From assembly GCA_902779865.1 (NCBI GenBank), contig CACZDG010000003.1, positions 3,200-67,199 on the forward strand: 64,000 nt of DNA. The letters run 5' to 3'. Positions 8,340 through 57,751 of this stretch are shown here, piece after piece (the first letter of the stretch is position 1; each line of letters begins with the position of its first letter). Below the pieces are notes generated by a model that did no database searches, was not told the DNA's origin, and saw nothing but the letters and a program-made list of their open reading frames with translations. The stretch is from an uncultured bacterium (GTDB lineage Bacteria > Verrucomicrobiota > Kiritimatiellia > RFP12 > UBA1067). The translations under genes were made by a program, and so were the position numbers.

Positions 8340-8386
8340 TGGAGCCGGCAGAGGGATTCGAACCCCCGACCAGCGGTTTACAAAAC
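8340..8386. repeat. att repeat, left copy (displaced 3' part of tRNA-Thr)
   Basis: TGGAGCCGGCAGAGGGATTCGAACCCCCGACCAGCGGTTTACAAAAC is identical to 57677-57723. Confidence 0.95.
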
Positions 8387-8584
8387 ATGCCATGGACGTG
8401 AAACTTGAAACACGTTGAACACGTGGAGCAAAATCTCGCGTTATATGAACACTTCGCACACATAGAGCACGGTTTGTCAGCACCCGTGTCAGCACGCGCC
8501 AACTACTAGGGGCTGTTCGCAGGGCATTGTACCACGCCGGAAAACCTACCGAAAAACTTTTTTTAACTTTTTTTCGGTAGGTGC

Positions 8585-44284: not shown

Positions 44285-47200
44285 ATGCAGCAGATTTTCC
44301 ACATGCGCGGCGAGAACGGCAAGGACTATGACGTTCCCGAGAACGAGATGGAGGAGTTCAAGCAGTATGTGCCGAACGCCATGCGCGTCAACTCGCACTT
44401 CGGGAAGAACGGGAAGACATACGACGTTCCCGAAAACGAGACGGAGGAGTTCAAGCAGTATGTGCCCGACGCGCAGCCGATGCGCCGCTACTCCTTCTCC
44501 GACGGCTCCACCCGCGACTTCACCGTGCCGGAGCTTGCGAAGTTCCTGCGCTCCGACGAATACCGCAAGGGCGAGAGGTACGCCAAGGACAGGGAGGCGG
44601 ACGAAAAGGCGATGGCCGACTGGCAGCGCAGGCGCGACGCGGCGCAGGCCGCCGTGCCGTCGGAGTTGCAGCCAAGGGGTTTCGGCTCCGCGCTGACCCG
44701 CAACATGCTGTCGGCGGAGGGCATACGCGAAACGGCGGAAGACAGTCCTTCCGCGTGGCTCTACGGCTTTTTCAACGATGTTGCAAACTCGTTCGTCGGC
44801 GGCATAGGCAGCGGAAGCGGCAAAATCACCGAAGCCACGGGGCACCTCATCGGCAACAACGCCGTCGGCAACGCGCTCGTGGAAGAAGGCCGCGCGGGAC
44901 AGCAGGCCATCAGACAGGCGCTACCCACGGACATGGCCCCGAAGACGGGCAACGCCGTGGTGGACAAGGTGGCGGACGTAGGCAGGGGCGTGGCGAGCGT
45001 GACGGGCGAGTTCCTGCCAGCCGCCATTCCCGGCGTAGGGCAGGCATACGCCGCAAGTACGCTAAGTGCTGGGGCCGTGAACCGCATGAACCAGGTGTAC
45101 GACGCCGCGAAGGGAAACGGCTTTTCGGACGCGGCCGCGAGCTCGCTTGCATTTGGCGCGGGCGCGGTGGACGCCTTGCAGAACATCCTTCTGATGAAGG
45201 GTTTTAAGGGCATTTGGAACGGCGCGGAGAAACAGGCGGCGGACGCCGTGAAGCAGTCGCTGGTGAAGAAACTTACGGTCGATACGCTCAAGACAGGCGC
45301 AACGATGGGCGCGGGCGGCATGGCACAGGACGTGGTGGACCAGAACGTCGGCATCGACAGGGAGGGCAACGTGAGCGCGGTGCTCCCCTACGACATACGC
45401 CGCACGGCGGAGGTGGGGATTGATCAGTTCCTCGAAGGAGGGGCGTTCCACCTCGTCAACACGGGTGTACATGCGGTGAAGAGACGCATAATAGACGTAA
45501 AGTGGGAGGACGACGCAAGAAGCGATGGCGCGGAGGCGGCGCGACGCGCACTTGACGCGCCGGAGGGACGCGCCCTCGTCATGTGCAACAACCCGGAAGC
45601 CGCCAAGAAGATTCTTGAGGCGCGGTCGCAGGGCAAGGACGTTAGCCGAAAGATGCTGGAGGATTTGGGCATTCCCGTGGACGTCGCGCCAAGCAAGACG
45701 GACAGAAACGCGCTTGCGGACGCGATGATTGGCGACTACCGCGCCTACAAGGAGTGGCAGAGGCGGCTTCCAGACGCGGAGCAGTCAGCCGCGCTGAACA
45801 CGGAGATCGCCGGGATAGGCGTGGAGGTCGAAGAGAATGGCGAGATGACGGAGACGGCGTCGCTCATCCGCCAGGGGGTGCTTTCCAAAATCAAGGACGC
45901 GAAGGAACTTGACGACCCGAAGCGCAGGGCGGACTTGGTGTACGAGGCGGCGAAGGGGCTTCTGGGCGACAACGTGGGAATCGAGGGTCAGCCGCTCACG
46001 CCGCCGGAGCCCCCCGCAGAAACGCCGAAAAACGCCCCTGTGAGCGCTCCGCCGCCGGAAGGCACAACCACGCCGCCGGAACCGGCGGAGCCGCCACAGC
46101 CAGCGGAAGCCCCCGAATCCGCCACGCCAGAGCCCAAGCCGGAAACGCCGAGTCCCGTGTCGCCTGCGGAAGCTGGCGAAACCCCTGCGGAGCACTCGCG
46201 GCGAATCATCGAAGAGGGGCGCAGGAACCTTGCCGCGTCCCCGAACGCGAAGACCGTCAAGACCGGCAAGAAGGACGCCACCGCCACCATCTACACGCCG
46301 ACGGACGGCACTGGCGCGTTCAAGGTGACGAGAAAGACGTTCACGCACGGGTTCCGCGGCCCCAACAGGGCCGACAACGAGGCGGTGAGCCAGCACCTGG
46401 GCGAAACGCTCGACGGCTCGCTCGCACTCCCGGAGCATGGCACGGACGGCACGCGCTTCCGCATGTCTGCGGTCAAGATCGGCGGCGAGGACGCCCACGT
46501 GCTTTTCACGATCAACAAGGCCGGGAGCGTGACGGACGTTGACGTGCTGAAGGGCCTGAACGCAAAACGAAACCCCGAAGGGACAAAGCTAAGCACGTCA
46601 GAGACGTTGGCCGCCGGTACCTTCGAGGTGTCGGAAGGCAGTATAGCAGATTTCGACCGCGTTTGGCAAGAGCAATTCAAGCCCGGAATAACGAAGCCGA
46701 AAACCGTCAAGGCCGACCCGAAGAAGGCCGCGAAGGCCGTTGAGGGTTTCGTGGCGACCGACCCCACGCGCAAGACGCTGATGCACGTCCACCACGACCA
46801 CGAGGAAGGCGTGGCCGTCGCGACAGACGGGCGCGTCTTGATCGCCACGAAACACGGCTACGACAAGAACGCAAAGGACGACCCCGAAGCGCCCTACCCC
46901 AACTGGCGGCAGGTAATCCCGGACTACGACGGCAAGACGTACAGGACATTCACGGAAGAGTACGTGGAGGGCAAGGGCAAGTGGAGGAAAAAGGCCGTCG
47001 ATCTTCCCGTCCACACGCTGGAGACCGACCCCGCCGCCGTATCGGCCGCCTGCAAGAAGGCCGCGTCCCTCGCAAAGGCCGTAGGGCACGAAGGCGCGGT
47101 GTACGCCTCGCTCGAACTCCCGGACGGCGGGCGTGTCATGATGGACCCCGCCTACCTCCGCAAGGTGGCGGACGCGATGGGCGCGAACGGCATCACGGAG

Positions 47201-50200
47201 ATCAGGGCCGTCGCGCCGAACAGGCCGATCCTCGCGAAAAACGCGGACACCACCATCGTCGCCATGCCGCTGCGCGGAGGCACGACCGATGCGCCCACGG
47301 GACGCGTCTCCGGCAACCCGCTCGTCATCGACGCCATGACGGGCCGCATTCTGACAGCGCCGGAGCGCAGCGACAACACGGCGATGACAAGCCGCAAGTG
47401 GGCGGACGAGCTGAAAAAGGAGATCGCGCGCGCCCGCGACGACGCGATGGCCGACGCGCGCACCGAAGACCTGTTCAAGAACATCGCGGGCGCATGGAAG
47501 CGCGGCGAGACGGACGCGAAGGCCGTGTTCGACGGCTATTCGGGCGATGGCGCGTGGGAAAAGCTCCCGCAGACGGAGCGGACGCGGTTCGAGGAGTGGT
47601 TCGCGCTGAAGGACGAGAACGCCCTCGCGGAGAAAGTCGCCGAATACGTCGCCGACCAGTTCCCAGACCTCAACCGCTGGCGCAAGGACCTTCCGCGCGA
47701 GGTCGCGAAAATCGAGAAGCGAATCGCAGCCGAGGACGAGATAGACGCCCTCATGGCCGGCGAGCCGCCGCCGGCCCCCGCCCCCAAGCCCGTCAACAAG
47801 GGCAAGGGCAAGGAAGCCGTCCAGGCGGCAAAGGCGCTCGGTTCGCCGGACGCGGCAAGCCCGCTCCGCCCCGCGCCGAAGGGCGCAAAGCTTGTGCAGG
47901 GCGAGTTCGACGGCATGGGCGGCGAGACGGCGGCAAGGCCGGAGGCTACCGCGCTGAAAGGCAAGTCTGACCTCTCCAAACCGGACAACGTAATAGCCCT
48001 TCGCGAATATGTGAAGGGTGTCACGCCCACGCCCATTCCACAAAGACTTTCTGACGGGAAGCCAAAGACCGCACTTGAATGGTTCGAGGCAAACATGGTA
48101 GGCAAGACGTTCTCGTTCGACATTCCGGGGTACGGGCACCGCGAGTTCACCGTGAAGCCCGGACACATAGGAACTCTAGTTTGCAGGGGCGGGCGGAATG
48201 CCGACGGCACAAGGATCGTGAAAGGACGCATTGCAAAGGCGAACGGAGACATAGCCCGCGCGTTTGAGATGGTTCGCAATGGCGAGGTTTCCGAAGCGGA
48301 CGTGGAGGGATGGGATCCCCTTCGCGCAAAATCACTCCCTCTCGTTCCAGAGGTGTTCAAGTCGTTTGATGTGGCCCTTCACGAAAAAGACGCACACGGA
48401 AACGACATCGTAATCCTCGCTAAGAAGTTCGTGAACAAGAAGGGTCGCCCAAACGTCGTCGTCATGAAGTTGGTAAACGACAACGTTTCGATAGGTCCGC
48501 TGTCATCGCACGTTGGCGACCTGACTTTCTCCTGGCTGAAAAATAAAGACCTCCTCCTCACGGATGAGGGGAAGGTCTATGACGGGGCTGCGAATGACTC
48601 CGCAAGTCGCAGTCCACTTAAAGGGGATAACGCGGAGGGCAACTCCCCTGAAAGCGGCGATATGATACCACGTCCCGGCGGCGAAGTCAAGGGCGGCGCG
48701 GAAAATTCGCAAGAGACGAAAAAGACGCCAGACCCGCAGAACGCCGCCCGCAACCCGTCCGCGCTACGCGACCCCGCGTTCGTGAAGTGGGCGAAATCGA
48801 AGGGACGCGCCCCGACGCCCTTCGCGCGACGCGCCTACGACGCCGCGCAGCTCCGCGCCGCCGTCCCCCTCTACCGCAACGTCTTCCCCGACATGAACAT
48901 CGTGATCCACGACAAGGTGGAGGATCCCGCGAAGTGGACGGCCGACCACCCCGACGGAACGCAGAAGATGATTGGCGGCGTAGGCGGAGCGTCGAACATG
49001 GGCATAAAGGGAGCGGCAGACGCCGAAGCGCTGGAAAAGGCCGGCAAGGACCGCGAGGAAATCTGGCGCAAGACAGGCTGGTGGCGTGCCAAGGATGGCA
49101 AGTGGCGCTTCGAGCTGCCGTCCACCAAGATGAAGGACGCAAGGGCGCTTTATGCTGCGCTCATCGAAGGACACAACGAGACGACGCTCGGAAAGATACT
49201 GGACGCACCCGAACTGTTCGAGGCGTATCCGCAGCTGAAAGACACGAAGATCATCCTTTCGCCGGAGCATAACGACGAAACTGGAGGATGGTATAACCGT
49301 ATCAAGAACGAAATCGTCCTCTTCGACGCCGGCCTCGTTTCCTTAAAGGACATGCCGTCACACGAAAGGGATCTTCGAGACACCTACCAGAGAGTGCTTG
49401 ATTCGGACGAGTTCGTCCGCCGTAGATTCGCAGACATGGATGCGTTCGGCATCGAGCATGGCACAGTCGAGGAGGAGCGCGAGTACGCGAGGTGGTGGAT
49501 CGAACGGCAGGATAAAGGAATCGCCAGGACCAACGAGACGAAAATCCGCGACCTGGCGAACGACAGGAGGGTTTGGAGCGTATTCGGAAAGATAATCCAC
49601 GAGGTACAGCATGCAGTGCAGCACATCGAGGGCTTCGCGACGGGCGCAAGCGGCAATGAGGATGGATACAGCCGTTTCGCCGGCGAGGTTGAGGCACGCA
49701 ATGCTGCGCGGCGTGAAGCCATGTCGCCGGAGGAGCGCGCGGCCACGCCGCCATGGGCGAGCGAAGATGTTGCGGAGGGCACGCAGATAATACGACGCAT
49801 GATCGTCGATCCGAAGAGCGGCGAAGTCCTCGGATGGTACACGCCGCAGTTCAAGGAGGTGCACCTCAACCCCGGCGCGACCGTGGAGACGCTCGCCCAC
49901 GAGATGCTCCACGCCGTGCAGGACTGGGCCAAGACGAACAGCCCCAAGCTCGCGAAGGCGCTGGACGACATCGCCCGCGACTGCCCGGAACGGCTCAAGA
50001 AGCGCATCATGCGCGCATACGGCGTAGTCTCGCCGGAGACCATCATGAAGGAGTGGGGCGCGTTCAACTTCATGGGCGGCCCGGAGGGCGGCAGGGGCAG
50101 GGGCGGCGCGGCCCTACGCGACGAGCTGGCCAAGCGCGAGAACGCCGCGTGGCTCGGGCGGTTCTGGGACGCGGCGAAGGACGCATGGAAGGACATGGCC

Positions 50201-53119
50201 GCGAAGATGGGCGGCAACCGCATCGACCTCGACGCGATAGACTCCAAGACCCCGCAGGAGGCCATGGACTTCCTCGCCCGCGCGTTCGCCGAGGGCGGCA
50301 CCGTCGGCAAGGCCAATCCCCCCGGCAAGTCCGTGCGCCCCGCAATCGACATGACGAAGCCGCTCTCCTTCGCTGAGAAGTGGGACGTCAACCTCCACGA
50401 CTACCGCAGCCCCCTGAAGTGGCTGCGCGACGAGATGGCGAAGCGCGGCTCGTCGTTCGCCGACGACACCGACTTCTACGAGGCCGCACGGCTCCAGAAG
50501 GGATACGACCAGGCCGCCGTCAACGACGCGAACCGCCGCCTGAAGGAGTACACCGGCAAGCTCAAGAAGCTCGGCGTGAAGCACGAGGAGGTCGTGGAGT
50601 TCATGCAGGCCCAGGCCGCCAAGGACCGCAACGCCATGATCCTGGAGAAGTTCGGGCGCGAGAACGGCTCCGGCATGACGGACGCGGAGGCCGCGCGCAC
50701 GATCAAGGCGTTCGAGGACGCGGGCAAGGGCGACGCCCTGCGCGAGATCTCGGACTTCCTCCTCGACATGCAGCGCGAGGGATTGCAGTACCGCGTCGAA
50801 ACGGGGCTCCTCTCCGCAGAGGACGCGCAGAGGATGGCCGACCGCGAGCCGTTCCACGTCCCCTTCCGCTCCGCCGTCGATCCAGAGACCGGCGACTACG
50901 TGCAGTGGGGCAGCGACAAGGCCCTCGAAAAGGCCGAGTTCAAGGAGGCGAAGGGCCGCAAGACGCTCGCCGACGACGTGGTCGGCTGGATGTTCTCCGA
51001 GTTCATCGACGCCCACACTCGCGGCAACGAGAACCGCATACGCAAGATGGTCGCCGACGCGATGCGGCTCAACGCGAAGTCCGGCGTCGGCAAGATACTC
51101 AAGGGCGCCCGCAAGCAGAGCGCATACGACTTCTCCGCCGGAGAGTACAAGACCGGCGCGGACGGCGACGGGCGCACGGGCGACAAGGCGAAGACCGCGA
51201 TTGTGGACGATCCGCGCTTCCGCGAATCCCGCAAGAACGGCGACGGCGGGCGAAAGAACGTCCTCGCCTTCAAGGAGGGAGGGCGGACGCACTACATCGA
51301 GTTCGCCGAGGGCGAGCGCGGCGAGCGGTTGCAGGCCGCCGTCAACGGGCGCGACCTCAAGAGCATGGGCAAGCTGTGGAAGAGGGGAATGCGCTTCTGG
51401 TCGTCCACCGCAACCGAGTGGGCGCCCACGTTCGCGCTGCGCAACTTCGCGGCGGACAACATCGACGTGTTCGGCAACTACATCGGCGAGCACGGGATCG
51501 TCAAGGGCTCGGCGTCCTACGCGCGGCACCTGAAGAACGCCGCCGCGCTCACCCCCGCCATAACGCGGTACATCGCCACCGGCGACATCCCGCAGGGCGT
51601 CGGCGGCGAGTGGATAAGGCGCTACGAGCAGTCCGGCGGCTTGATCGCGGGCTACGCATCCGAGGGCTACGGCGAGATCACGGCGAAGATCGACGCCGAG
51701 ATCGCCAAAAGCGGCAGGTCGAAAGGCGCGGCAATCATAAACGCCGTGAAAACAGCAATAACGTCACCTTTGAAATCCGTCCGGAAGGTGCTGGGGAAAG
51801 TCTGGTATCCGATTGACGTCCTGAACCGCTACGCCGAGCTGCTGACGCGCGTGTCCGCGTTCAGGACGCAGTGCGAGAACGGCATGACCGACCACAAGGC
51901 CGCGCTCTGGAGCCGCGAATCGACAGTTGACTTCAACGAGAAGGGAAACTTCACCGGCATCACCAACGGCCTGTGGATGTTCTCCAACTCCACGCTCGGC
52001 GCGTCCGCCCGCCAGCTGAAGAGCATTTTCAAGTCGAAATACGGCTGGCAGACCGTCGCCGCATTCGTCGGCTACGGACTCGCCGAGGGACTGCTCGAAG
52101 CCCTGATGAACGGCGACGACGAGGAGCGCGAGGCGAAGGGCGAGGGCGCGGGAAAGGACGTGTCCGAGTACACCCGCGCCAACTCGCTCTACGTGCGCAG
52201 GGGAGGCAGGGTGTACCGCGTCCCGTTCCACGCCGGGCCGTTCTCATACATCAAGTACGCAGGGAACTGCGCGGCACGCGTCATGCTGGGGAAGATGAAG
52301 CCGGAGGACGCCGCGAAGGAACTTGGTTGGGAGGCCCTGTCGCAGCTCTTCCACTACACGGGAGTCGGAGACGTGAACATGCAGTCCCAGAGCGGGAGGT
52401 TCGCGGACGATGCCGCCACATTCGCCGGAACGGCCGCGCCGTCCCTCGCGCAGCCGCTCGTGCAGGGCGCGTTCAACATCGACCACGCGGGGCGCAGCAT
52501 CTACAACGAGGGCTTCCCCGGCGACAGGACGCCCCGCTCCGCGCAGGGCCGCCGCTCCACGCCAGGATGGGCGAAGGACGCGGCGGCGTGGCTCAACGAG
52601 GCCACGCGCTCCGAGGGGCACGAGACCGGCTACATCGACCTCCCGCCGGAGATAATCAAGATGGCCGGCGAGGCCGTCGGAAAGAACCTCCTCCGCGACG
52701 TGATGAACGCCGGAACGGTCTGCGCCATGGCGTTCGGCGACGAGAAGTACGACGTGCGCAACGTCCCCGTCGCCCGCGACTTCGTGCGCGCCGTGGACGG
52801 CAACGACCGCCGCTACAACGACGCCAGGAAGGAATACGAGGCCAACGCGGACTACCTCAAAAAGCACGCCCGCGAGATGTCCGCAGAGGAGCGCAGGGCC
52901 TACGTCGAGAAGTTCCCCCACGCCGCGTTCGTCGCCAAGGGCAGGCAGCGGCTGGACGGCCTGGAGACGGAGATACGCCGCCTCCGCAAGATGGAGGACG
53001 GCTTCGCGTTCGTGAAAGGAAAAGCCGTTCCCCGCGAATGGCCGGAGGAACGGCTTGAGGCGTTCAGGAAGCGCCGCCGCGAGCTTCAGGCGCTGTTTCT
53101 CAAGGAGATGGGCATGTAG
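44285..53119 (+). CDS. 2944-aa polyvalent virion protein (beta-clamp-like module, two HExxH modules, long helical C-terminal part)
   Basis: Single uninterrupted ORF with consistent G/C third positions. Motifs are detailed in the findings. Confidence 0.85.
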   Translation: MQQIFHMRGENGKDYDVPENEMEEFKQYVPNAMRVNSHFGKNGKTYDVPENETEEFKQYVPDAQPMRRYSFSDGSTRDFTVPELAKFLRSDEYRKGERYAKDREADEKAMADWQRRRDAAQAAVPSELQPRGFGSALTRNMLSAEGIRETAEDSPSAWLYGFFNDVANSFVGGIGSGSGKITEATGHLIGNNAVGNALVEEGRAGQQAIRQALPTDMAPKTGNAVVDKVADVGRGVASVTGEFLPAAIPGVGQAYAASTLSAGAVNRMNQVYDAAKGNGFSDAAASSLAFGAGAVDALQNILLMKGFKGIWNGAEKQAADAVKQSLVKKLTVDTLKTGATMGAGGMAQDVVDQNVGIDREGNVSAVLPYDIRRTAEVGIDQFLEGGAFHLVNTGVHAVKRRIIDVKWEDDARSDGAEAARRALDAPEGRALVMCNNPEAAKKILEARSQGKDVSRKMLEDLGIPVDVAPSKTDRNALADAMIGDYRAYKEWQRRLPDAEQSAALNTEIAGIGVEVEENGEMTETASLIRQGVLSKIKDAKELDDPKRRADLVYEAAKGLLGDNVGIEGQPLTPPEPPAETPKNAPVSAPPPEGTTTPPEPAEPPQPAEAPESATPEPKPETPSPVSPAEAGETPAEHSRRIIEEGRRNLAASPNAKTVKTGKKDATATIYTPTDGTGAFKVTRKTFTHGFRGPNRADNEAVSQHLGETLDGSLALPEHGTDGTRFRMSAVKIGGEDAHVLFTINKAGSVTDVDVLKGLNAKRNPEGTKLSTSETLAAGTFEVSEGSIADFDRVWQEQFKPGITKPKTVKADPKKAAKAVEGFVATDPTRKTLMHVHHDHEEGVAVATDGRVLIATKHGYDKNAKDDPEAPYPNWRQVIPDYDGKTYRTFTEEYVEGKGKWRKKAVDLPVHTLETDPAAVSAACKKAASLAKAVGHEGAVYASLELPDGGRVMMDPAYLRKVADAMGANGITEIRAVAPNRPILAKNADTTIVAMPLRGGTTDAPTGRVSGNPLVIDAMTGRILTAPERSDNTAMTSRKWADELKKEIARARDDAMADARTEDLFKNIAGAWKRGETDAKAVFDGYSGDGAWEKLPQTERTRFEEWFALKDENALAEKVAEYVADQFPDLNRWRKDLPREVAKIEKRIAAEDEIDALMAGEPPPAPAPKPVNKGKGKEAVQAAKALGSPDAASPLRPAPKGAKLVQGEFDGMGGETAARPEATALKGKSDLSKPDNVIALREYVKGVTPTPIPQRLSDGKPKTALEWFEANMVGKTFSFDIPGYGHREFTVKPGHIGTLVCRGGRNADGTRIVKGRIAKANGDIARAFEMVRNGEVSEADVEGWDPLRAKSLPLVPEVFKSFDVALHEKDAHGNDIVILAKKFVNKKGRPNVVVMKLVNDNVSIGPLSSHVGDLTFSWLKNKDLLLTDEGKVYDGAANDSASRSPLKGDNAEGNSPESGDMIPRPGGEVKGGAENSQETKKTPDPQNAARNPSALRDPAFVKWAKSKGRAPTPFARRAYDAAQLRAAVPLYRNVFPDMNIVIHDKVEDPAKWTADHPDGTQKMIGGVGGASNMGIKGAADAEALEKAGKDREEIWRKTGWWRAKDGKWRFELPSTKMKDARALYAALIEGHNETTLGKILDAPELFEAYPQLKDTKIILSPEHNDETGGWYNRIKNEIVLFDAGLVSLKDMPSHERDLRDTYQRVLDSDEFVRRRFADMDAFGIEHGTVEEEREYARWWIERQDKGIARTNETKIRDLANDRRVWSVFGKIIHEVQHAVQHIEGFATGASGNEDGYSRFAGEVEARNAARREAMSPEERAATPPWASEDVAEGTQIIRRMIVDPKSGEVLGWYTPQFKEVHLNPGATVETLAHEMLHAVQDWAKTNSPKLAKALDDIARDCPERLKKRIMRAYGVVSPETIMKEWGAFNFMGGPEGGRGRGGAALRDELAKRENAAWLGRFWDAAKDAWKDMAAKMGGNRIDLDAIDSKTPQEAMDFLARAFAEGGTVGKANPPGKSVRPAIDMTKPLSFAEKWDVNLHDYRSPLKWLRDEMAKRGSSFADDTDFYEAARLQKGYDQAAVNDANRRLKEYTGKLKKLGVKHEEVVEFMQAQAAKDRNAMILEKFGRENGSGMTDAEAARTIKAFEDAGKGDALREISDFLLDMQREGLQYRVETGLLSAEDAQRMADREPFHVPFRSAVDPETGDYVQWGSDKALEKAEFKEAKGRKTLADDVVGWMFSEFIDAHTRGNENRIRKMVADAMRLNAKSGVGKILKGARKQSAYDFSAGEYKTGADGDGRTGDKAKTAIVDDPRFRESRKNGDGGRKNVLAFKEGGRTHYIEFAEGERGERLQAAVNGRDLKSMGKLWKRGMRFWSSTATEWAPTFALRNFAADNIDVFGNYIGEHGIVKGSASYARHLKNAAALTPAITRYIATGDIPQGVGGEWIRRYEQSGGLIAGYASEGYGEITAKIDAEIAKSGRSKGAAIINAVKTAITSPLKSVRKVLGKVWYPIDVLNRYAELLTRVSAFRTQCENGMTDHKAALWSRESTVDFNEKGNFTGITNGLWMFSNSTLGASARQLKSIFKSKYGWQTVAAFVGYGLAEGLLEALMNGDDEEREAKGEGAGKDVSEYTRANSLYVRRGGRVYRVPFHAGPFSYIKYAGNCAARVMLGKMKPEDAAKELGWEALSQLFHYTGVGDVNMQSQSGRFADDAATFAGTAAPSLAQPLVQGAFNIDHAGRSIYNEGFPGDRTPRSAQGRRSTPGWAKDAAAWLNEATRSEGHETGYIDLPPEIIKMAGEAVGKNLLRDVMNAGTVCAMAFGDEKYDVRNVPVARDFVRAVDGNDRRYNDARKEYEANADYLKKHAREMSAEERRAYVEKFPHAAFVAKGRQRLDGLETEIRRLRKMEDGFAFVKGKAVPREWPEERLEAFRKRRRELQALFLKEMGM

Positions 53120-54704
53120 CCCTGTCCGTCCCCTCCTCCATCATCCTGACGCGGCGCGCGCGCATCGTCGCGTAGTCCACGGCGATGCGCCCCGCGAGCA
53201 GGTTCCGCGCCCACCCCGCCGGGGCCATGCCGTACGCCCACGCCGCCTTCCGCGCCTTCACGGCGTGGTACGCCGAGAGCCTTACGCCCCCGACGTCCAC
53301 GCCGTCAGGCCACTTCCGGCAGAGCGCCTCCACCTCGCGCCAGTCGCCGTCCGTGAACGGAACGGCGTCCAGCGCGGCGATCAGGCGCTCCTCGTCCGTC
53401 GGAGGGCGGCGGCTCACCGCGCGCCCCCCCTTCCCCGACACGCTGGCATGCCAGGCACGGAGCGCGCGCCGCGTCTCCCGCAGCCGCTCGTGCGCCTTGC
53501 ACCCGCGCAGGATCCCGCCAACGAGCCGCAGCGGCGTGACGTTCGCCGTCCCGGCCGCCCGCGCCACGCGGTAGCGCATCACGCGGTCCATCCGCACCCC
53601 GCACACGGACGCGAACTCCGGCGAGCCGTCCTTCGACTCCTCCGCGATCTTCGCGTAGTCGTCGCCGCAGAGCGCGGAGGGCGGCAGCGAGGCGTTCACC
53701 GCCTCCCACCCCACGCGGTCCATCTCGCCCTCGATCACGCGCACCGCCTCGCGCACGGCCTGCACCGGCGCCGCGTCGGCGGGCGCGGGCAGGGCGGCCG
53801 GGGCGCCCTGCGTCCCCTGCGCCCCGGCGAGCGCGTGGAACACGAGGTCCGCCGTCGCCGCCTCCTCGCCCTTGCGGTACTCCACGAACGCCTCCGCGCC
53901 CGTCACGCAGTCGCGCCGCACCATGAACACGGCCCCCGTCCCCAGCAGGACCGCCCGCCGCGCCTCGTCCGAGCCGACGCACATCAGCCCGAAGGCGTGG
54001 AGCGGGTGCCACACGCCGGGGAACGACGGCATCGGCGCGATCACGCACGGAAGCCGCCCAGCCGTCCCCAGGAGCCGCGCCGTCGCGATGTCCGCCCCGA
54101 CGGGACGGAGCCACGCCTCCGCCACCGAGCGCTCCACGAACGCGGCCACCCCGCCGAGGTCGTCGCGCCCGAGGACGCGCCGGAGGTTCGACTCCAGGGC
54201 GCGGCGCACCGCCTCCGCGTCCGCCTCCTCGTAGGGGAGGATGTGCGGCGCGGACTTCAGCACATACCCGCGCAGAAGCCGCTCCTTCAGCGTCCTCGTC
54301 GCCCACTGACGGAACTGGACGCCGCGCCGCGAGTTCACCCGGTAGCCGACCGAGATTATCGCGTCGAGGTTGTAGCACCGCACCGTCCGCGTCACCGTGC
54401 GTTTCCCCTCGATGTCAACTATTTGAAATTCTTGAATAGTTGATTTTCTGTCTAGTTCACCATCATCGAATATGTTCTTGAGGTGTGTGTTGATATTCGG
54501 CGTGTTGCACCCAAACAGCACTGCCATTTGCTTTTGCGTGAGCCAGACGGTCTCGCCGTCCATCCGCACATTTATCTTCGCGGCGTCCGTCGGCTGATAG
54601 ACGACGACCTCGCCGTTGCTGTTCCCGTCGAGCACGGCGGCGGAGCCGTCGCCCGTATTCTGCGCGTTTGTATAGCGGGCGCGCGCCGCGTTTTTCTTGC
54701 TCAT
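53100..54704 (-). CDS. RhuM-family N-terminal domain fused to ~380-aa unknown Ala/Arg-rich domain
   Basis: TVWLTQKQMAVLFG...HLKNIFDDGEL...YNLDAIISVGYRVNSRRGVQFRQWATRTLKERLLRGY is the RhuM core. The C-terminal frame is confirmed by near-uniform G/C third positions. Confidence 0.75.
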   Translation of the reverse strand: MSKKNAARARYTNAQNTGDGSAAVLDGNSNGEVVVYQPTDAAKINVRMDGETVWLTQKQMAVLFGCNTPNINTHLKNIFDDGELDRKSTIQEFQIVDIEGKRTVTRTVRCYNLDAIISVGYRVNSRRGVQFRQWATRTLKERLLRGYVLKSAPHILPYEEADAEAVRRALESNLRRVLGRDDLGGVAAFVERSVAEAWLRPVGADIATARLLGTAGRLPCVIAPMPSFPGVWHPLHAFGLMCVGSDEARRAVLLGTGAVFMVRRDCVTGAEAFVEYRKGEEAATADLVFHALAGAQGTQGAPAALPAPADAAPVQAVREAVRVIEGEMDRVGWEAVNASLPPSALCGDDYAKIAEESKDGSPEFASVCGVRMDRVMRYRVARAAGTANVTPLRLVGGILRGCKAHERLRETRRALRAWHASVSGKGGRAVSRRPPTDEERLIAALDAVPFTDGDWREVEALCRKWPDGVDVGGVRLSAYHAVKARKAAWAYGMAPAGWARNLLAGRIAVDYATMRARRVRMMEEGTDRATCPSP

Positions 54705-54873
54705 GGTATCTCAACTCCATTCGCAGTTTAGACAAAAGCCCCGCCGAATGTGGTTGAGATACGCGCCAACGGTTGACGCGGGCCGACATCCGGCAGGGCA
54801 ACGGTTGAATTGCCGTTAGTTCCGTGCGAGGAACAGGTATCTCAACTCCTATTATTCCTCGGAACGACACAAA

Positions 54874-54902
54874 GTATATCACACCTCGCCCCGCCGCGCA
54901 AG
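54874..54902 (-). promoter_or_regulatory. promoter TTGCGC-17-TGaTATACT for the RhuM-fusion gene
   Basis: -10 at 54874-54879, -35 at 54897-54902 (reverse-complement coordinates). Tandem TTGGTGCGC repeats lie just upstream. Confidence 0.5.
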
Positions 54903-54949
54903 AGGGAATTTTCACGTTTTTGCGCTTGGTGCGCTTGGTGCGCCCCGCG

Positions 54950-55546
54950 CTACGACGCAGACGGTTTTCTTCCGTTGCAGTTCTTCTTCGCGGCGATAGA
55001 TTGCTTGGCGCGTGCGACAAAATCGGCTATCTCCGTGTTGTTGTCGGCGACATTGCTTTTGTCGCACAACTTGCCGAACCAAGCACGAAATGCGGCGTAC
55101 TTTATACACCCTTTCAGGCGCACGATGGCGCAGATATAGCAAAGAAACGGCCATCCGGCTGCAATCAGCACCGGAAGAAAGAGCAGGGGCGACCATTTGG
55201 CCACTGCGGGACAATCAACCCACCCGGACCAGAGCAGGAACACGCCGACCAAGGCAAACACGACGTCAAGCACTCGCCAGAACAGACCCGGTGAGTTCTC
55301 TCCCTTTTCCTGGCGGCGCTTGATTGCGACAGCTCTCTTCCCTATTCGCCGTATGTCGTCGTCCTTGATGTATGAGCGCAGTTCTTCGCTGAAGTTGTTT
55401 GCGATGATCTTGTCCGGATCGACCTCGATTCCGCTGAAGAACCGGCTCATGATGGCAGGCGCGACAGGCAGCAGAAGGTTTGCGCCTATCGAGACGCAAA
55501 CCACATCTGAAGCATGGGCAACGAAGTTGAACGCGGGAAGGCTCAT
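54950..55546 (-). CDS. 198-aa membrane protein (soluble N-domain, 2 TM helices, basic tail)
   Basis: GGAGG RBS. TM helices FWRVLDVVFALVGVFLLWSGWV and LLFLPVLIAAGWPFLCYICAIV. Lower GC3 than the surroundings. Confidence 0.7.
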   Translation of the reverse strand: MSLPAFNFVAHASDVVCVSIGANLLLPVAPAIMSRFFSGIEVDPDKIIANNFSEELRSYIKDDDIRRIGKRAVAIKRRQEKGENSPGLFWRVLDVVFALVGVFLLWSGWVDCPAVAKWSPLLFLPVLIAAGWPFLCYICAIVRLKGCIKYAAFRAWFGKLCDKSNVADNNTEIADFVARAKQSIAAKKNCNGRKPSAS

Positions 55547-56457: not shown

Positions 56458-57615
56458 TCACCCCATTTTCAGCATGGCTGGCGTCGCCGCCTTTATGATC
56501 TCGTCCTCGGCCGCCTCGAAGGAGTAGCGGTCGGTGATGCGCAGGCCAAGCGTGTGCCCGAGAACCGCGCTTGCGGCGTCGATGCCGAAGCGGCGGCGTA
56601 TCTCCGTGGCGCACGTGTGGCGCAGCTGGTTCGGGTGCCAGTGCGGCACGTCCGCGCGCTCTGCGGCGCGGGAGATCGCTCGCTGGTACGCCTCGACCTT
56701 CCACTTCTCGCCCACGCTGCGCCCGACGGTCTGCCTGGGCGAGAACACGTAGCCGTCGCCCTCGTACTTCGCGAGTATGGCCTGCGCCTTCGGCCCGAAC
56801 ACGATCACGCGCGGCTTGTTGCGGTGCTTGTTCTTGTGGTTCCCCGGCCTGTACGCCCAGATCTTGCCGCGCCTCTCGACGAGCGGCCACGCGAGCTGGC
56901 ACATCTCGTCCGGCCTCGCGCCGCACAGCCGCTGGACGCGCACCATGTCGGCGAGCGGCTCGGCCAGCTCCGCGCACGTCTTCTTCACGTCCGCGTCCGG
57001 CACGGCGGCCACGGGGCTGCACTCCTTCACGTTGCCGCGTCCGCGCTTCAGCTGCGAGATCGCGGTGGCCTCCGCCTTCACCTGCGCGGAGATTATGCGC
57101 TCGTCGAGGGCCCACGCGAACATGCGCTTGACGAAACCGAGGTACTTGTTCACGGTGGTGCGCACGTACCCCTTCGCGGCGAGCGCGTTGCGGTACTCTA
57201 TCATGTCGGGGTGCGTCATTGTCTCGACGGGGCGCGTCCCGAACATTTCGCGGAAGAGCCTCATGCCGCGAACGCTGTCGGCGGCCTCCTTCGACCCGCC
57301 GGAGTAGTACGTCTCCGCGTGTGCGGCCCACTTGTCGATCACGTCGTTCACGGTGAACGCGGGCGCGTCGATTCCCGCGTCCGCCTGCCTTGTCATGTTC
57401 TCCCACAGACGCCACGCCGCGCTCTCGGCAATCGACCTGGTGCTTGCACTTGCGGGTATTCTCTCGCCGGTGTACGGCATTGTGAGGACGTGGTCTTTTC
57501 TTGTTTTTTCGCCAGGATTCGCGACTCGCCAGTGCCACGCGCCGTGGGACTCCCACAGCGTGCCGGGCAGGGCGGCCCGCCTTCTCGTGTCAGCGTTTTT
57601 GTCAGCACCTGTCAT
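56458..57615 (-). CDS. int: tyrosine recombinase / phage integrase
   Basis: C-terminal HPNQLRHTCAT...VLGHT...RY catalytic motifs. Start set at MTGADKN (GGAGA RBS). Adjacent to the att repeat and tRNA. Confidence 0.85.
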   Translation of the reverse strand: MTGADKNADTRRRAALPGTLWESHGAWHWRVANPGEKTRKDHVLTMPYTGERIPASASTRSIAESAAWRLWENMTRQADAGIDAPAFTVNDVIDKWAAHAETYYSGGSKEAADSVRGMRLFREMFGTRPVETMTHPDMIEYRNALAAKGYVRTTVNKYLGFVKRMFAWALDERIISAQVKAEATAISQLKRGRGNVKECSPVAAVPDADVKKTCAELAEPLADMVRVQRLCGARPDEMCQLAWPLVERRGKIWAYRPGNHKNKHRNKPRVIVFGPKAQAILAKYEGDGYVFSPRQTVGRSVGEKWKVEAYQRAISRAAERADVPHWHPNQLRHTCATEIRRRFGIDAASAVLGHTLGLRITDRYSFEAAEDEIIKAATPAMLKMG

Positions 57616-57676
57616 TTCATGTGTCTCCGTTTCATGCCCTAAGTGCGTTTCGCCCAATGTTTGCAAGGGTTTTCGA

Positions 57677-57723
57677 TGGAGCCGGCAGAGGGATTCGAAC
57701 CCCCGACCAGCGGTTTACAAAAC
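57677..57723. repeat. att repeat, right copy (forms the 3' part of the intact tRNA-Thr)
   Basis: Identical to 8340-8386. Confidence 0.95.
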
Positions 57724-57751
57724 CGCTGCGCTACCACTACGCTATACCGGC
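57677..57751 (-). tRNA. tRNA-Thr (anticodon UGU), 75 nt with encoded CCA
   Basis: Hand-folded. Acceptor GCCGGTA/TGCCGGC, D arm GCGT-AGTGGTA-GCGC, anticodon arm GCGGT-TTTGTAA-ACCGC, T arm GGGGG-TTCGAAT-CCCTC, discriminator T, then CCA. Confidence 0.9.

Follow-up and report, generated by a model that had tools for sequence, protein, structure and literature searches.

The final leftward operon of a prophage in the analyzed DNA (a stretch of 64,000 nucleotides, hereafter the window) has a leader that probably encodes an antisense RNA regulator that resembles the C4 RNA of phages P1 and P7 and the CI RNA of phage P4 but has a single, diversifying address. Three short elements of this leader, denoted A, B and A', vary in concert among related prophages and are the most variable part of an otherwise near-invariant RNA; A and A' are presented in hairpin loops and B in the junction of a domain with the C4/CI topology.

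Three complementary elements in a structured leader

An exact repeat search bears out the core of an earlier note on this DNA, namely that a 14-mer occurs twice on the minus strand and that a perfect 10-nt complement of both copies lies between them; the positions given there for A and A' were one base too high. The elements are as follows.

54849-54836, minus strand: element A, GGAGUUGAGAUACC
54846-54837, minus strand: variable core of A, GUUGAGAUAC, almost wholly inside a 10-nt loop, with a closing stem that includes GG and CC
54762-54753, minus strand: element B, GUAUCUCAAC, perfectly complementary to GUUGAGAUAC, the 10-nt core that A and A' share; most of it is left unpaired in the P3 junction
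54718-54705, minus strand: element A', GGAGUUGAGAUACC, with the core at 54715-54706, directly 5' of the AUG (54704-54702)

In plus-strand coordinates, the direct repeat occupies 54705-54718 and 54836-54849. A triple of this kind, that is, a 14-nt direct repeat with a 10-nt inverted copy in between, is seen only once in the window, and 200 dinucleotide-preserving shuffles contained none; the arrangement is genuine and looks functional. In the window, the complementarity between B and A' extends to 18-nt arms (89%) separated by 21 nt. As the earlier note held, A' overlaps the start region and its pairing with B covers this region, spanning positions -11 to -2 relative to the AUG. A and A' are identical over 4 nt more than the stretch that B can pair with: of the 14 nt of the direct repeat, 10 nt pair with B, and the GG and CC on either side of them close the loop as a stem. 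A search for extra targets of B elsewhere in the prophage gave three one-mismatch matches compared to 1.4 expected, none of them at a start site. Two other origins of the repeat were considered and rejected: a leader peptide, given that no conserved start codon follows the GGAG of A in the leaders compared, and a target-site duplication of an inserted element, given that B co-varies and the interval is conserved.

Folding, which had been proposed as a check, shows the 181-nt leader to be more stable than shuffled sequences (-65.2 vs -51.5 kcal/mol, z = -3.3), and the P3 domain alone gives z = -4.6. The anatomy of the leader is summarized below.

54911-54873, minus strand: promoter-like element, AAATTC-N3-C, -35 TTGCGC (54901-54896), 17-nt spacer and extended -10 TGTGATATACT
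54878-54873, minus strand: -10 TATACT, part of the promoter-like element
54865-54819, minus strand: hairpin H1 from folding, presents A; loop closed by AGG/CCU
54865-54861 with 54823-54819, minus strand: H1 outer stem, GUUCC with GGAAC
54860-54855 with 54833-54828, minus strand: H1 inner stem, GAGGAA with UUCCUC
54817-54800, minus strand: hairpin H2, AACGG/CCGUU, kept in type 1 leaders
54799-54738, minus strand: P3 domain, the candidate antisense RNA, with a 14-bp stem, an inner hairpin and a single-stranded 3' junction
54799-54786 with 54751-54738, minus strand: P3 closing stem of 14 bp, GCCCUGCCGGAUGU with ACAUUCGGCGGGGC
54780-54762, minus strand: P3 inner hairpin
54737-54731, minus strand: U-rich tract UUUUGUC directly after P3, a possible weak intrinsic terminator or small RNA 3' end
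54725-54698, minus strand: A' hairpin, UGC/GCA and AUGG/CCAU stems with a 10-nt loop, taking in the GG of GGAG and the AU of the start codon

Because the promoter-like element is located at 54911-54873, the transcript should start just 5' of A, with a predicted start site at about 54868-54865. The promoter pattern has a single match in the window and none in shuffles, and the element is kept in all eight type 1 and type 2 leaders that reach that far (the types are defined below); it was not picked up by a simple sigma-70 scan. A match to this pattern, AAATTC-N3-CTTGCGCGG ... GTGATATA / GTGATATACT, is found in front of a two-tRNA operon in a metagenome contig (L097:1017-1053, minus strand), where the operon is downstream of the match and extends to about 860. 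A metagenome scan with the promoter pattern retrieved only two already recovered contigs and one tRNA operon. The pattern suggests a strong housekeeping promoter type of the host.

The P3 domain is supported by covariation. Across leader types 1 and 3, 10 of its 22 pairs are changed on both sides and 99% of the alignment cells are paired, in an alignment fitted to the model. The G-U pairs of the P3 stem fit the minus strand only, which fixes the transcribed strand as minus. The earlier account missed both the presentation of A and A' as hairpin loops and the location of B in the junction of a long-stem RNA domain, and the smaller hairpins listed there fared unevenly: AACGG/CCGUU is retained in type 1 leaders as H2; GUUCC...GGAAC is present locally but is specific to the window, with GGAAC in relatives pairing to GUUC(C/U) 5' of A in the hairpin that presents A; and GCCG...CGGC falls within the 5' strand of the much better supported 14-bp P3 stem. 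The duplicated CAACCGUUG reported there shows no conservation in the homologous leaders.

As regards a possible attenuator, the P3 stem is followed by a conserved UUUU, UUUA or AUUU, although this run of U is short and the interior enclosed by the stem is large. A U-rich tract is present in all three backbone types (CUUUU, CUUUAUC, GUUUUAUC and UAUUUCG), and a simple scan did not flag a terminator at the P3 U tract. This tract takes the place of a CCA-like motif, which is absent after the P3 stem, so that RNase P processing as in C4 and CI cannot be assumed. A 9-mer, GUAAUCCAC, is common to types 1 and 2 just 5' of P3 (L096:2886-2896 and L083:2891-2899), whereas the window has CAAUUCAAC. The 9-mer sits in the H2 loop of the type 1 relatives and may be a processing or binding site.

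Concerted variation of the cores in homologous leaders

Homologous loci were collected through exact-protein look-ups of close homologs, one genome scan and a self-built covariance model, which together yielded 12 distinct leaders from related prophages with 10 different cores of 7-10 nt; one further contig (P0018) ends 245 nt upstream of the gene and contributes no leader. A BLASTN comparison of the region with GenBank phages returned nothing, and no close relative emerged from scans of IMG/VR that used the protein, the promoter pattern or two backbone patterns. The genome closest to the window locus in the genome scan is a Lentisphaerae MAG, and the prophages with homologous leaders most likely belong to Lentisphaerae from rumen or gut samples. 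Several of the homologous contigs carry names that we take to be those of cattle-rumen assembly sets. The leaders fall into three backbone types, with the following cores.

Window and L096, type 1: GUUGAGAUAC
L001, type 1: GUUAGAAGAC
L093, type 1: GUUCGAAUGC
L103, type 1: GUUGAAAGGC
L101, type 1: GCUAGAAUGC
L090, type 1: GCUGAAAGAC
L083, type 2: CUGGAAAG
L095 and L100, type 2: CUGACAAG
L107, type 3: GUAGAAC(G)
L108, type 3: GUAAGAC(G)

Conservation and covariation of the three elements in homologs had been named as the decisive check on the three-element scheme, and A, B and A' are indeed kept and altered in concert in every locus, that is, in 12 of the 12 distinct leaders. B is the exact Watson-Crick complement of A in all loci, and A' is identical to A except for the last pair of B:A' in L090, L107 and L108. 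In the type 1 alignment, double-sided changes affect 6 of the 10 pairs of A:B and, again, 6 of the 10 pairs of B:A', with no one-sided changes; the alignment cells are paired in 100% of cases for A:B and in 98.6% for B:A'. When the partner is slid by 1-3 columns as a control, pairing falls to 26-46%.

The cores are not only co-varying but hypervariable. Among five otherwise near-identical leaders, two of which come from a truncated sequence, 18 of the 30 core columns are variable compared to 5 of the 142 other columns (Fisher p = 2e-12). The first 180 nt of the adjacent coding sequence in the same loci are 95-97% identical. The cores are the most variable part of a near-invariant leader, which is expected of a specificity determinant that distinguishes related phages but not of a self-contained switch in cis.

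The three backbone types share at most about 65% identity (types 1 and 2, about 65%) and nevertheless follow a common plan. A and A' are located in 9-10-nt loops closed by GG/CC; a 14-15-bp P3 stem surrounds one or two hairpins, with B in an 8-10-nt single-stranded 3' junction; and the A' hairpin consists of AUGG/CCAU and an outer stem of 2-3 bp, which take in part of GGAG and the AU of the AUG. The H1 stems differ by type, with UCUUCA/UGAAGA and GGGA/UCCC in type 2, and GUUUUCGG/CCGAGAAC and CAGG/CCUG in type 3. The type 1 covariance model detects type 3 at E of about 1e-6 and gives no match to type 2, P1 or P4. In the type 3 loci, which belong to more distant phages, the RNA module (L107:2098-2270 and L108:2030-2202) precedes a different first gene, an ORF of 112/143 aa, and hence can be considered a portable cassette. 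The module in these two loci is located two genes upstream of a 299-aa RhuM-like gene and adjoins a gene for an HTH_3 repressor-like protein.

There are no G-U pairs in the cores, so that covariation alone cannot separate RNA pairing from three identical DNA sites; the properties of the downstream gene bear on this choice.

The gene behind the leader and its prophage context

The leader and its gene belong to a prophage of about 49.3 kb that is bounded by a 47-bp exact direct repeat. The main features at its right end, together with the attachment sites, are the following.

8340-8386: attL
53100-54704, minus strand: regulated gene, residues about 30-151 matching the N-terminal part of RhuM
56458-57666, minus strand: tyrosine integrase
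57677-57723: attR, the 3' part of tRNA-Thr
57677-57751, minus strand: tRNA-Thr, predicted by ARAGORN

The plus strand of the prophage encodes a Sak4-like annealing protein, SSB, a Cas4-like exonuclease, a helicase, a primase, the large terminase, a tail fibre and a 2944-aa polyvalent protein. The only minus-strand prophage genes are the integrase, two small ORFs without a family match and the gene behind the leader, which is among the variable cargo adjoining the integrase. The polyvalent protein (LPD38, LPD23; 44285-53119, plus strand) converges on the regulated gene, and a relative shows a weak match to a Zeta toxin. Pfam detects no repressor-like HTH in the small ORFs near attL and between the primase and the terminase. 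A tRNA-like element was rejected as an explanation of the leader, given that ARAGORN finds only the tRNA-Thr. Outside the prophage, at 1120-1350 of the window, ACTTCAAG is repeated about ten times, at first as direct copies and further on as inverted ones (CTTGAAGT), in an iteron-like arrangement.

In the window, a G7 run (53430-53424, minus strand) fuses the regulated gene to the next ORF, resulting in a protein of 534 aa. The relatives stop at 434-435 aa and are followed by a separate ORF of 98-104 aa that is 82% identical to residues 430-530 of the window protein; the corresponding run of a relative (L096:4291-4296) is G6, with one G fewer. The extra G could be a sequencing error, a frameshift mutation or the result of slippage.

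The nature of this protein is central to a reading that retains the RNA mechanism but assigns it another role. Under this reading, which we consider unlikely, the protein with the RhuM N-domain is a toxin or defense effector, the B RNA is a translation brake akin to an RNA antitoxin, and new cores arise through conflict with other phages or because they keep prophages that reside together from cross-talking. The N-domain (residues 30-151) matches the PADLOC candidate defense models PDC-S05 and PDC-S23, with E-values down to 1e-53; relatives bear fusions to Fic or HNH domains; RhuM, which often occurs as a fusion with Doc, has been suggested to act as a toxin domain (PMC3710099); and the location of the gene in the variable cargo beside the integrase is also consistent with such a role. 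However, the match to the RhuM profile covers only positions 1-63 of 252, the C-terminal 280 residues have no family match, and there are no tandem RNA repeats of the type III kind. The AlphaFold model (pLDDT 44) is too poor for a structure search, and a PDB sequence search with the protein came back empty. The idea that the RNA is a general companion of RhuM genes was rejected because the type 1 model finds no match in 80 RhuM-domain loci from other phyla; a generic scan of the same 80 loci for A..B..A' triples returned only coding repeats or chance matches (L044 and L016 were read).

The HTH-like part of the RhuM N-domain contains a hypervariable mosaic segment (window 54390-54520, residues about 62-105), with 65-93% nucleotide identity and a grouping unlike that of the flanks. 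Its recombination is independent of both the cores and the remainder of the gene: the window and L096 have one core in common but different segments, and L093 and L095 have the segment in common but different cores. An HTH-like domain with a hypervariable segment in the downstream protein is what could be expected if A, B and A' were DNA sites, two direct and one inverted, serving as operators or recombination sites and co-evolving with a sequence-specific protein. The exact match of the three copies as DNA and the A/A' identity that runs 4 nt past the part pairing with B fit this possibility as well. We nevertheless hold it to be very improbable: the variable segment of the protein assorts independently of the cores, the upstream ORFs differ among the loci or are missing, all sites are downstream of the predicted transcription start and none overlaps the -35 or -10, the additional GG...CC identity is explained by the loop-closing stems, and the sites lie within RNA structures that are kept by compensatory changes. 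A protein encoded further away could in principle fill this role.

Energetics and the possibility of a switch in cis

The duplexes of each B with its cognate A' have predicted energies of -12 to -17 kcal/mol (about -15 in the window) compared to mostly -1 to -8 kcal/mol for the non-cognate ones; the strong exception is B of L090 with A' of L103, at -13.6 kcal/mol. In cis, the fold with B:A' is the minimum free energy structure or within 0-1.6 kcal/mol of it in 5 of 6 type 1 leaders, whereas in L090 and in type 2, it is less stable by about 6-10 kcal/mol. Given that the folds are near-isoenergetic, the leader appears to be bistable, with one state in which P3 is formed and B is exposed, and another in which B:A' is formed and the start site is buried. 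Forcing A:B costs 4-14 kcal/mol, and in these models A is a thermodynamically weak competitor. The alternative pairing logic of the earlier note holds as such, whereas the anti-sequestor role of A:B is disfavored by this gap of 4-14 kcal/mol.

That B:A' in cis is as stable as the P3 fold speaks against a C4/CI-like regulator, in the sense that a purely cis mechanism would suffice. The leader would then be a self-contained switch, with the RBS open when B pairs with A and closed when B pairs with A', the outcome being decided by the kinetics of folding or by temperature, a ligand or a protein, with neither a trans-acting RNA nor a role in immunity. The three-way covariation fits such a switch equally well, and so does the bistability of the 5 type 1 leaders. 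The switch nevertheless gives no reason for the cores to evolve fastest in a near-invariant leader, the pairing that would open the RBS is the one that has to be forced, and the architecture is that of the trans-acting C4 and CI RNAs. The specific labels also do not fit. The riboswitch label has no support because no Rfam riboswitch or other relevant family matches and there is no match to a known aptamer. As for an RNA thermometer, known examples typically have a weak helix with mismatches over the start region, unlike the perfect 10-bp sequestering helix of about -15 kcal/mol found here. A general likeness to the riboswitch, attenuator and thermometer platforms does exist, with mutually exclusive helices, one of them over the start, near-isoenergetic folds, and a stem followed by a U tract; the differences are the hypervariable switching helices, the strength and perfection of the sequestering helix, and the absence of an aptamer or known family. 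Altogether, a switch acting purely in cis seems a doubtful explanation.

Comparison with the C4 and CI RNAs

The preferred reading, an antisense regulator of the C4/CI kind, draws on direct comparison with the phage RNAs. The P1/P7 C4 and P4 CI RNAs are specificity determinants between related phages, and Citron and Schuster (1990; cited in PMC8198154) are said to have found that the specificities of P1 and P7 differ through compensatory changes. Here, the ten cores likewise differ among related phages, with each change in the RNA matched in its targets, and would set specificity in the same way as in the C4 family.

The Rfam search, C4 clan included, gave no relevant match at E <= 10 in the window (54300-55300), L089 and L102, only chance matches of the miRNA type. 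In the positive control, phage P4, the Rfam C4 model recovers the CI RNA at 8420-8507 (74.9 bits, E = 1.5e-14), with an IsrK-like RNA upstream. The failure of a profile search says little about distant relatedness because the type 1 model misses even type 2 leaders. In the P4 sequence, GUGAGAA and UUCACAGG are present both upstream and downstream of CI, with the complements inside CI, and the downstream copy leads directly into AGGAGG, which an AUG closely follows. The P1 record lists, in order, promoters, a1 b1, the c4 RNA, a2 b2 ('repression of icd ant translation'), icd and ant. When folded alone, P1 C4 and P4 CI each form a long stem that encloses two hairpins, with a junction of 7-8 nt before the 3' strand. 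Set beside them, the leaders of the window, L096, L083 and L107 show the same plan: the P3 of type 2 has exactly this layout, and that of type 1 has it with one hairpin. Furthermore, the a' segment of P1 (CUGUCAA) is located in the 3' junction, as is B in the window leader. A second complementary segment, as in bipartite recognition, was not found by inspection, and the inner hairpin loop of type 1 is 3-4 nt long. In the type 2 leaders, the only difference outside A, B and A' between L083 (position 2939) and L095 (position 1736) is a U/C substitution in the loop of P3 hairpin 2. This loop is where C4 and CI hold the second antisense segment; no matching target change was found for the substitution.

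Thus, the window leader shares with P1/P7 C4 (Rfam RF01695, clan CL00128) the order of a promoter, an upstream target, a structured RNA and a downstream target on the RBS of the first gene, the long stem with internal hairpins and antisense bases in a single-stranded 3' junction, and the association with temperate phages. The differences are that the C4 covariance model does not match the window leaders, that recognition involves one site of 7-10 nt rather than a' (7 nt) and b' (8 nt), that the targets are in closed hairpin loops and a U-rich tract replaces the CCA, that the downstream gene is not icd/ant and the host is most likely a member of Lentisphaerae, and that there are ten specificities rather than the classic pair. 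With P4 CI (seqB, with seqA and seqC), the common features are the complementary sequences up- and downstream of the RNA, the fold class and the tyrosine integrase. P4 differs in that CI causes premature termination, seqA is in a separate IsrK-like small RNA with its own terminator, recognition is bipartite, CI is an RNase P substrate, and P4 is a satellite, in contrast to the full prophage here.

Outside of phages, the window RNA can be likened to the plasmid antisense RNAs, RNA I/II of ColE1 and CopA/CopT of R1. Their pairing is initiated by loops, a few loop bases set the specificity group, and replicons diverge at these bases. The contrast is in the strand: the ColE1 and R1 antisense RNAs are transcribed from the strand opposite the target, whereas here the regulator and both targets are on one strand and in one transcript.

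The published accounts of the phage systems are as follows. P1 immI has the a1b1/c4/a2b2 arrangement (PMC8198154); in P4, in agreement with the sequence as read here, a leader RNA released by processing pairs with complementary stretches on either side of it, the seqA, seqB and seqC scheme (PMC4825925); C4 and CI are both RNase P substrates (PMC5499578); and the C4 motif has been reported from Proteobacteria and their phages (PMC2864571).

Proposed mechanism and implications

By analogy with these phage RNAs, we infer translational repression, release of a small RNA, its action in trans and its biological role as follows. A host-type promoter would start the transcript just 5' of H1, which would display the target A in its 10-nt loop. 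About 65 nt further on, P3 would form, with B single-stranded in the 3' junction and the U-rich tract after it, and the second target A' would be exposed in the hairpin loop across the spacer between GGAG and AUG. Upon contact between the junction and the A' loop, B would form a duplex of 7-10 bp (-12 to -17 kcal/mol) and block initiation; the B:A' pairing may also favor stopping at or before the P3 U tract. B could bind A in the same manner, in which case A would be a second target or a decoy. The P3 RNA, freed by termination or by processing, would act in trans on an incoming phage with the same core. The core would then define a specificity (immunity) group, and selection would keep making new cores.

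A stronger version of this proposal, in which an independently evolved, single-site 'addressable' riboregulator is the main immunity determinant of a prophage group most likely found in Lentisphaerae, is put forward as a tentative idea that, on balance, we do not expect to hold. No protein repressor was recognized in the ORFs checked, and under this version nature would have produced ten or more mostly orthogonal addresses on a scaffold that hardly changes.

Immunity and control of an antirepressor by RNA only are textbook features of P1, P7 and P4 and, going by the Rfam description of the family, are known from Proteobacteria and their phages. The three-site logic of the P1 and P4 RNA immunity would now be found in prophages of a phylum of the PVC group, with a simpler, one-site recognition. 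The ten or more address variants, which co-vary on a scaffold that is close to identical, constitute a natural series and provide direct evidence that selection diversifies the address; the same variants are ready-made candidates for orthogonal riboregulators. Such RNAs escape the covariance models now in use, and current annotation may therefore underestimate how widespread RNA-based phage immunity is.
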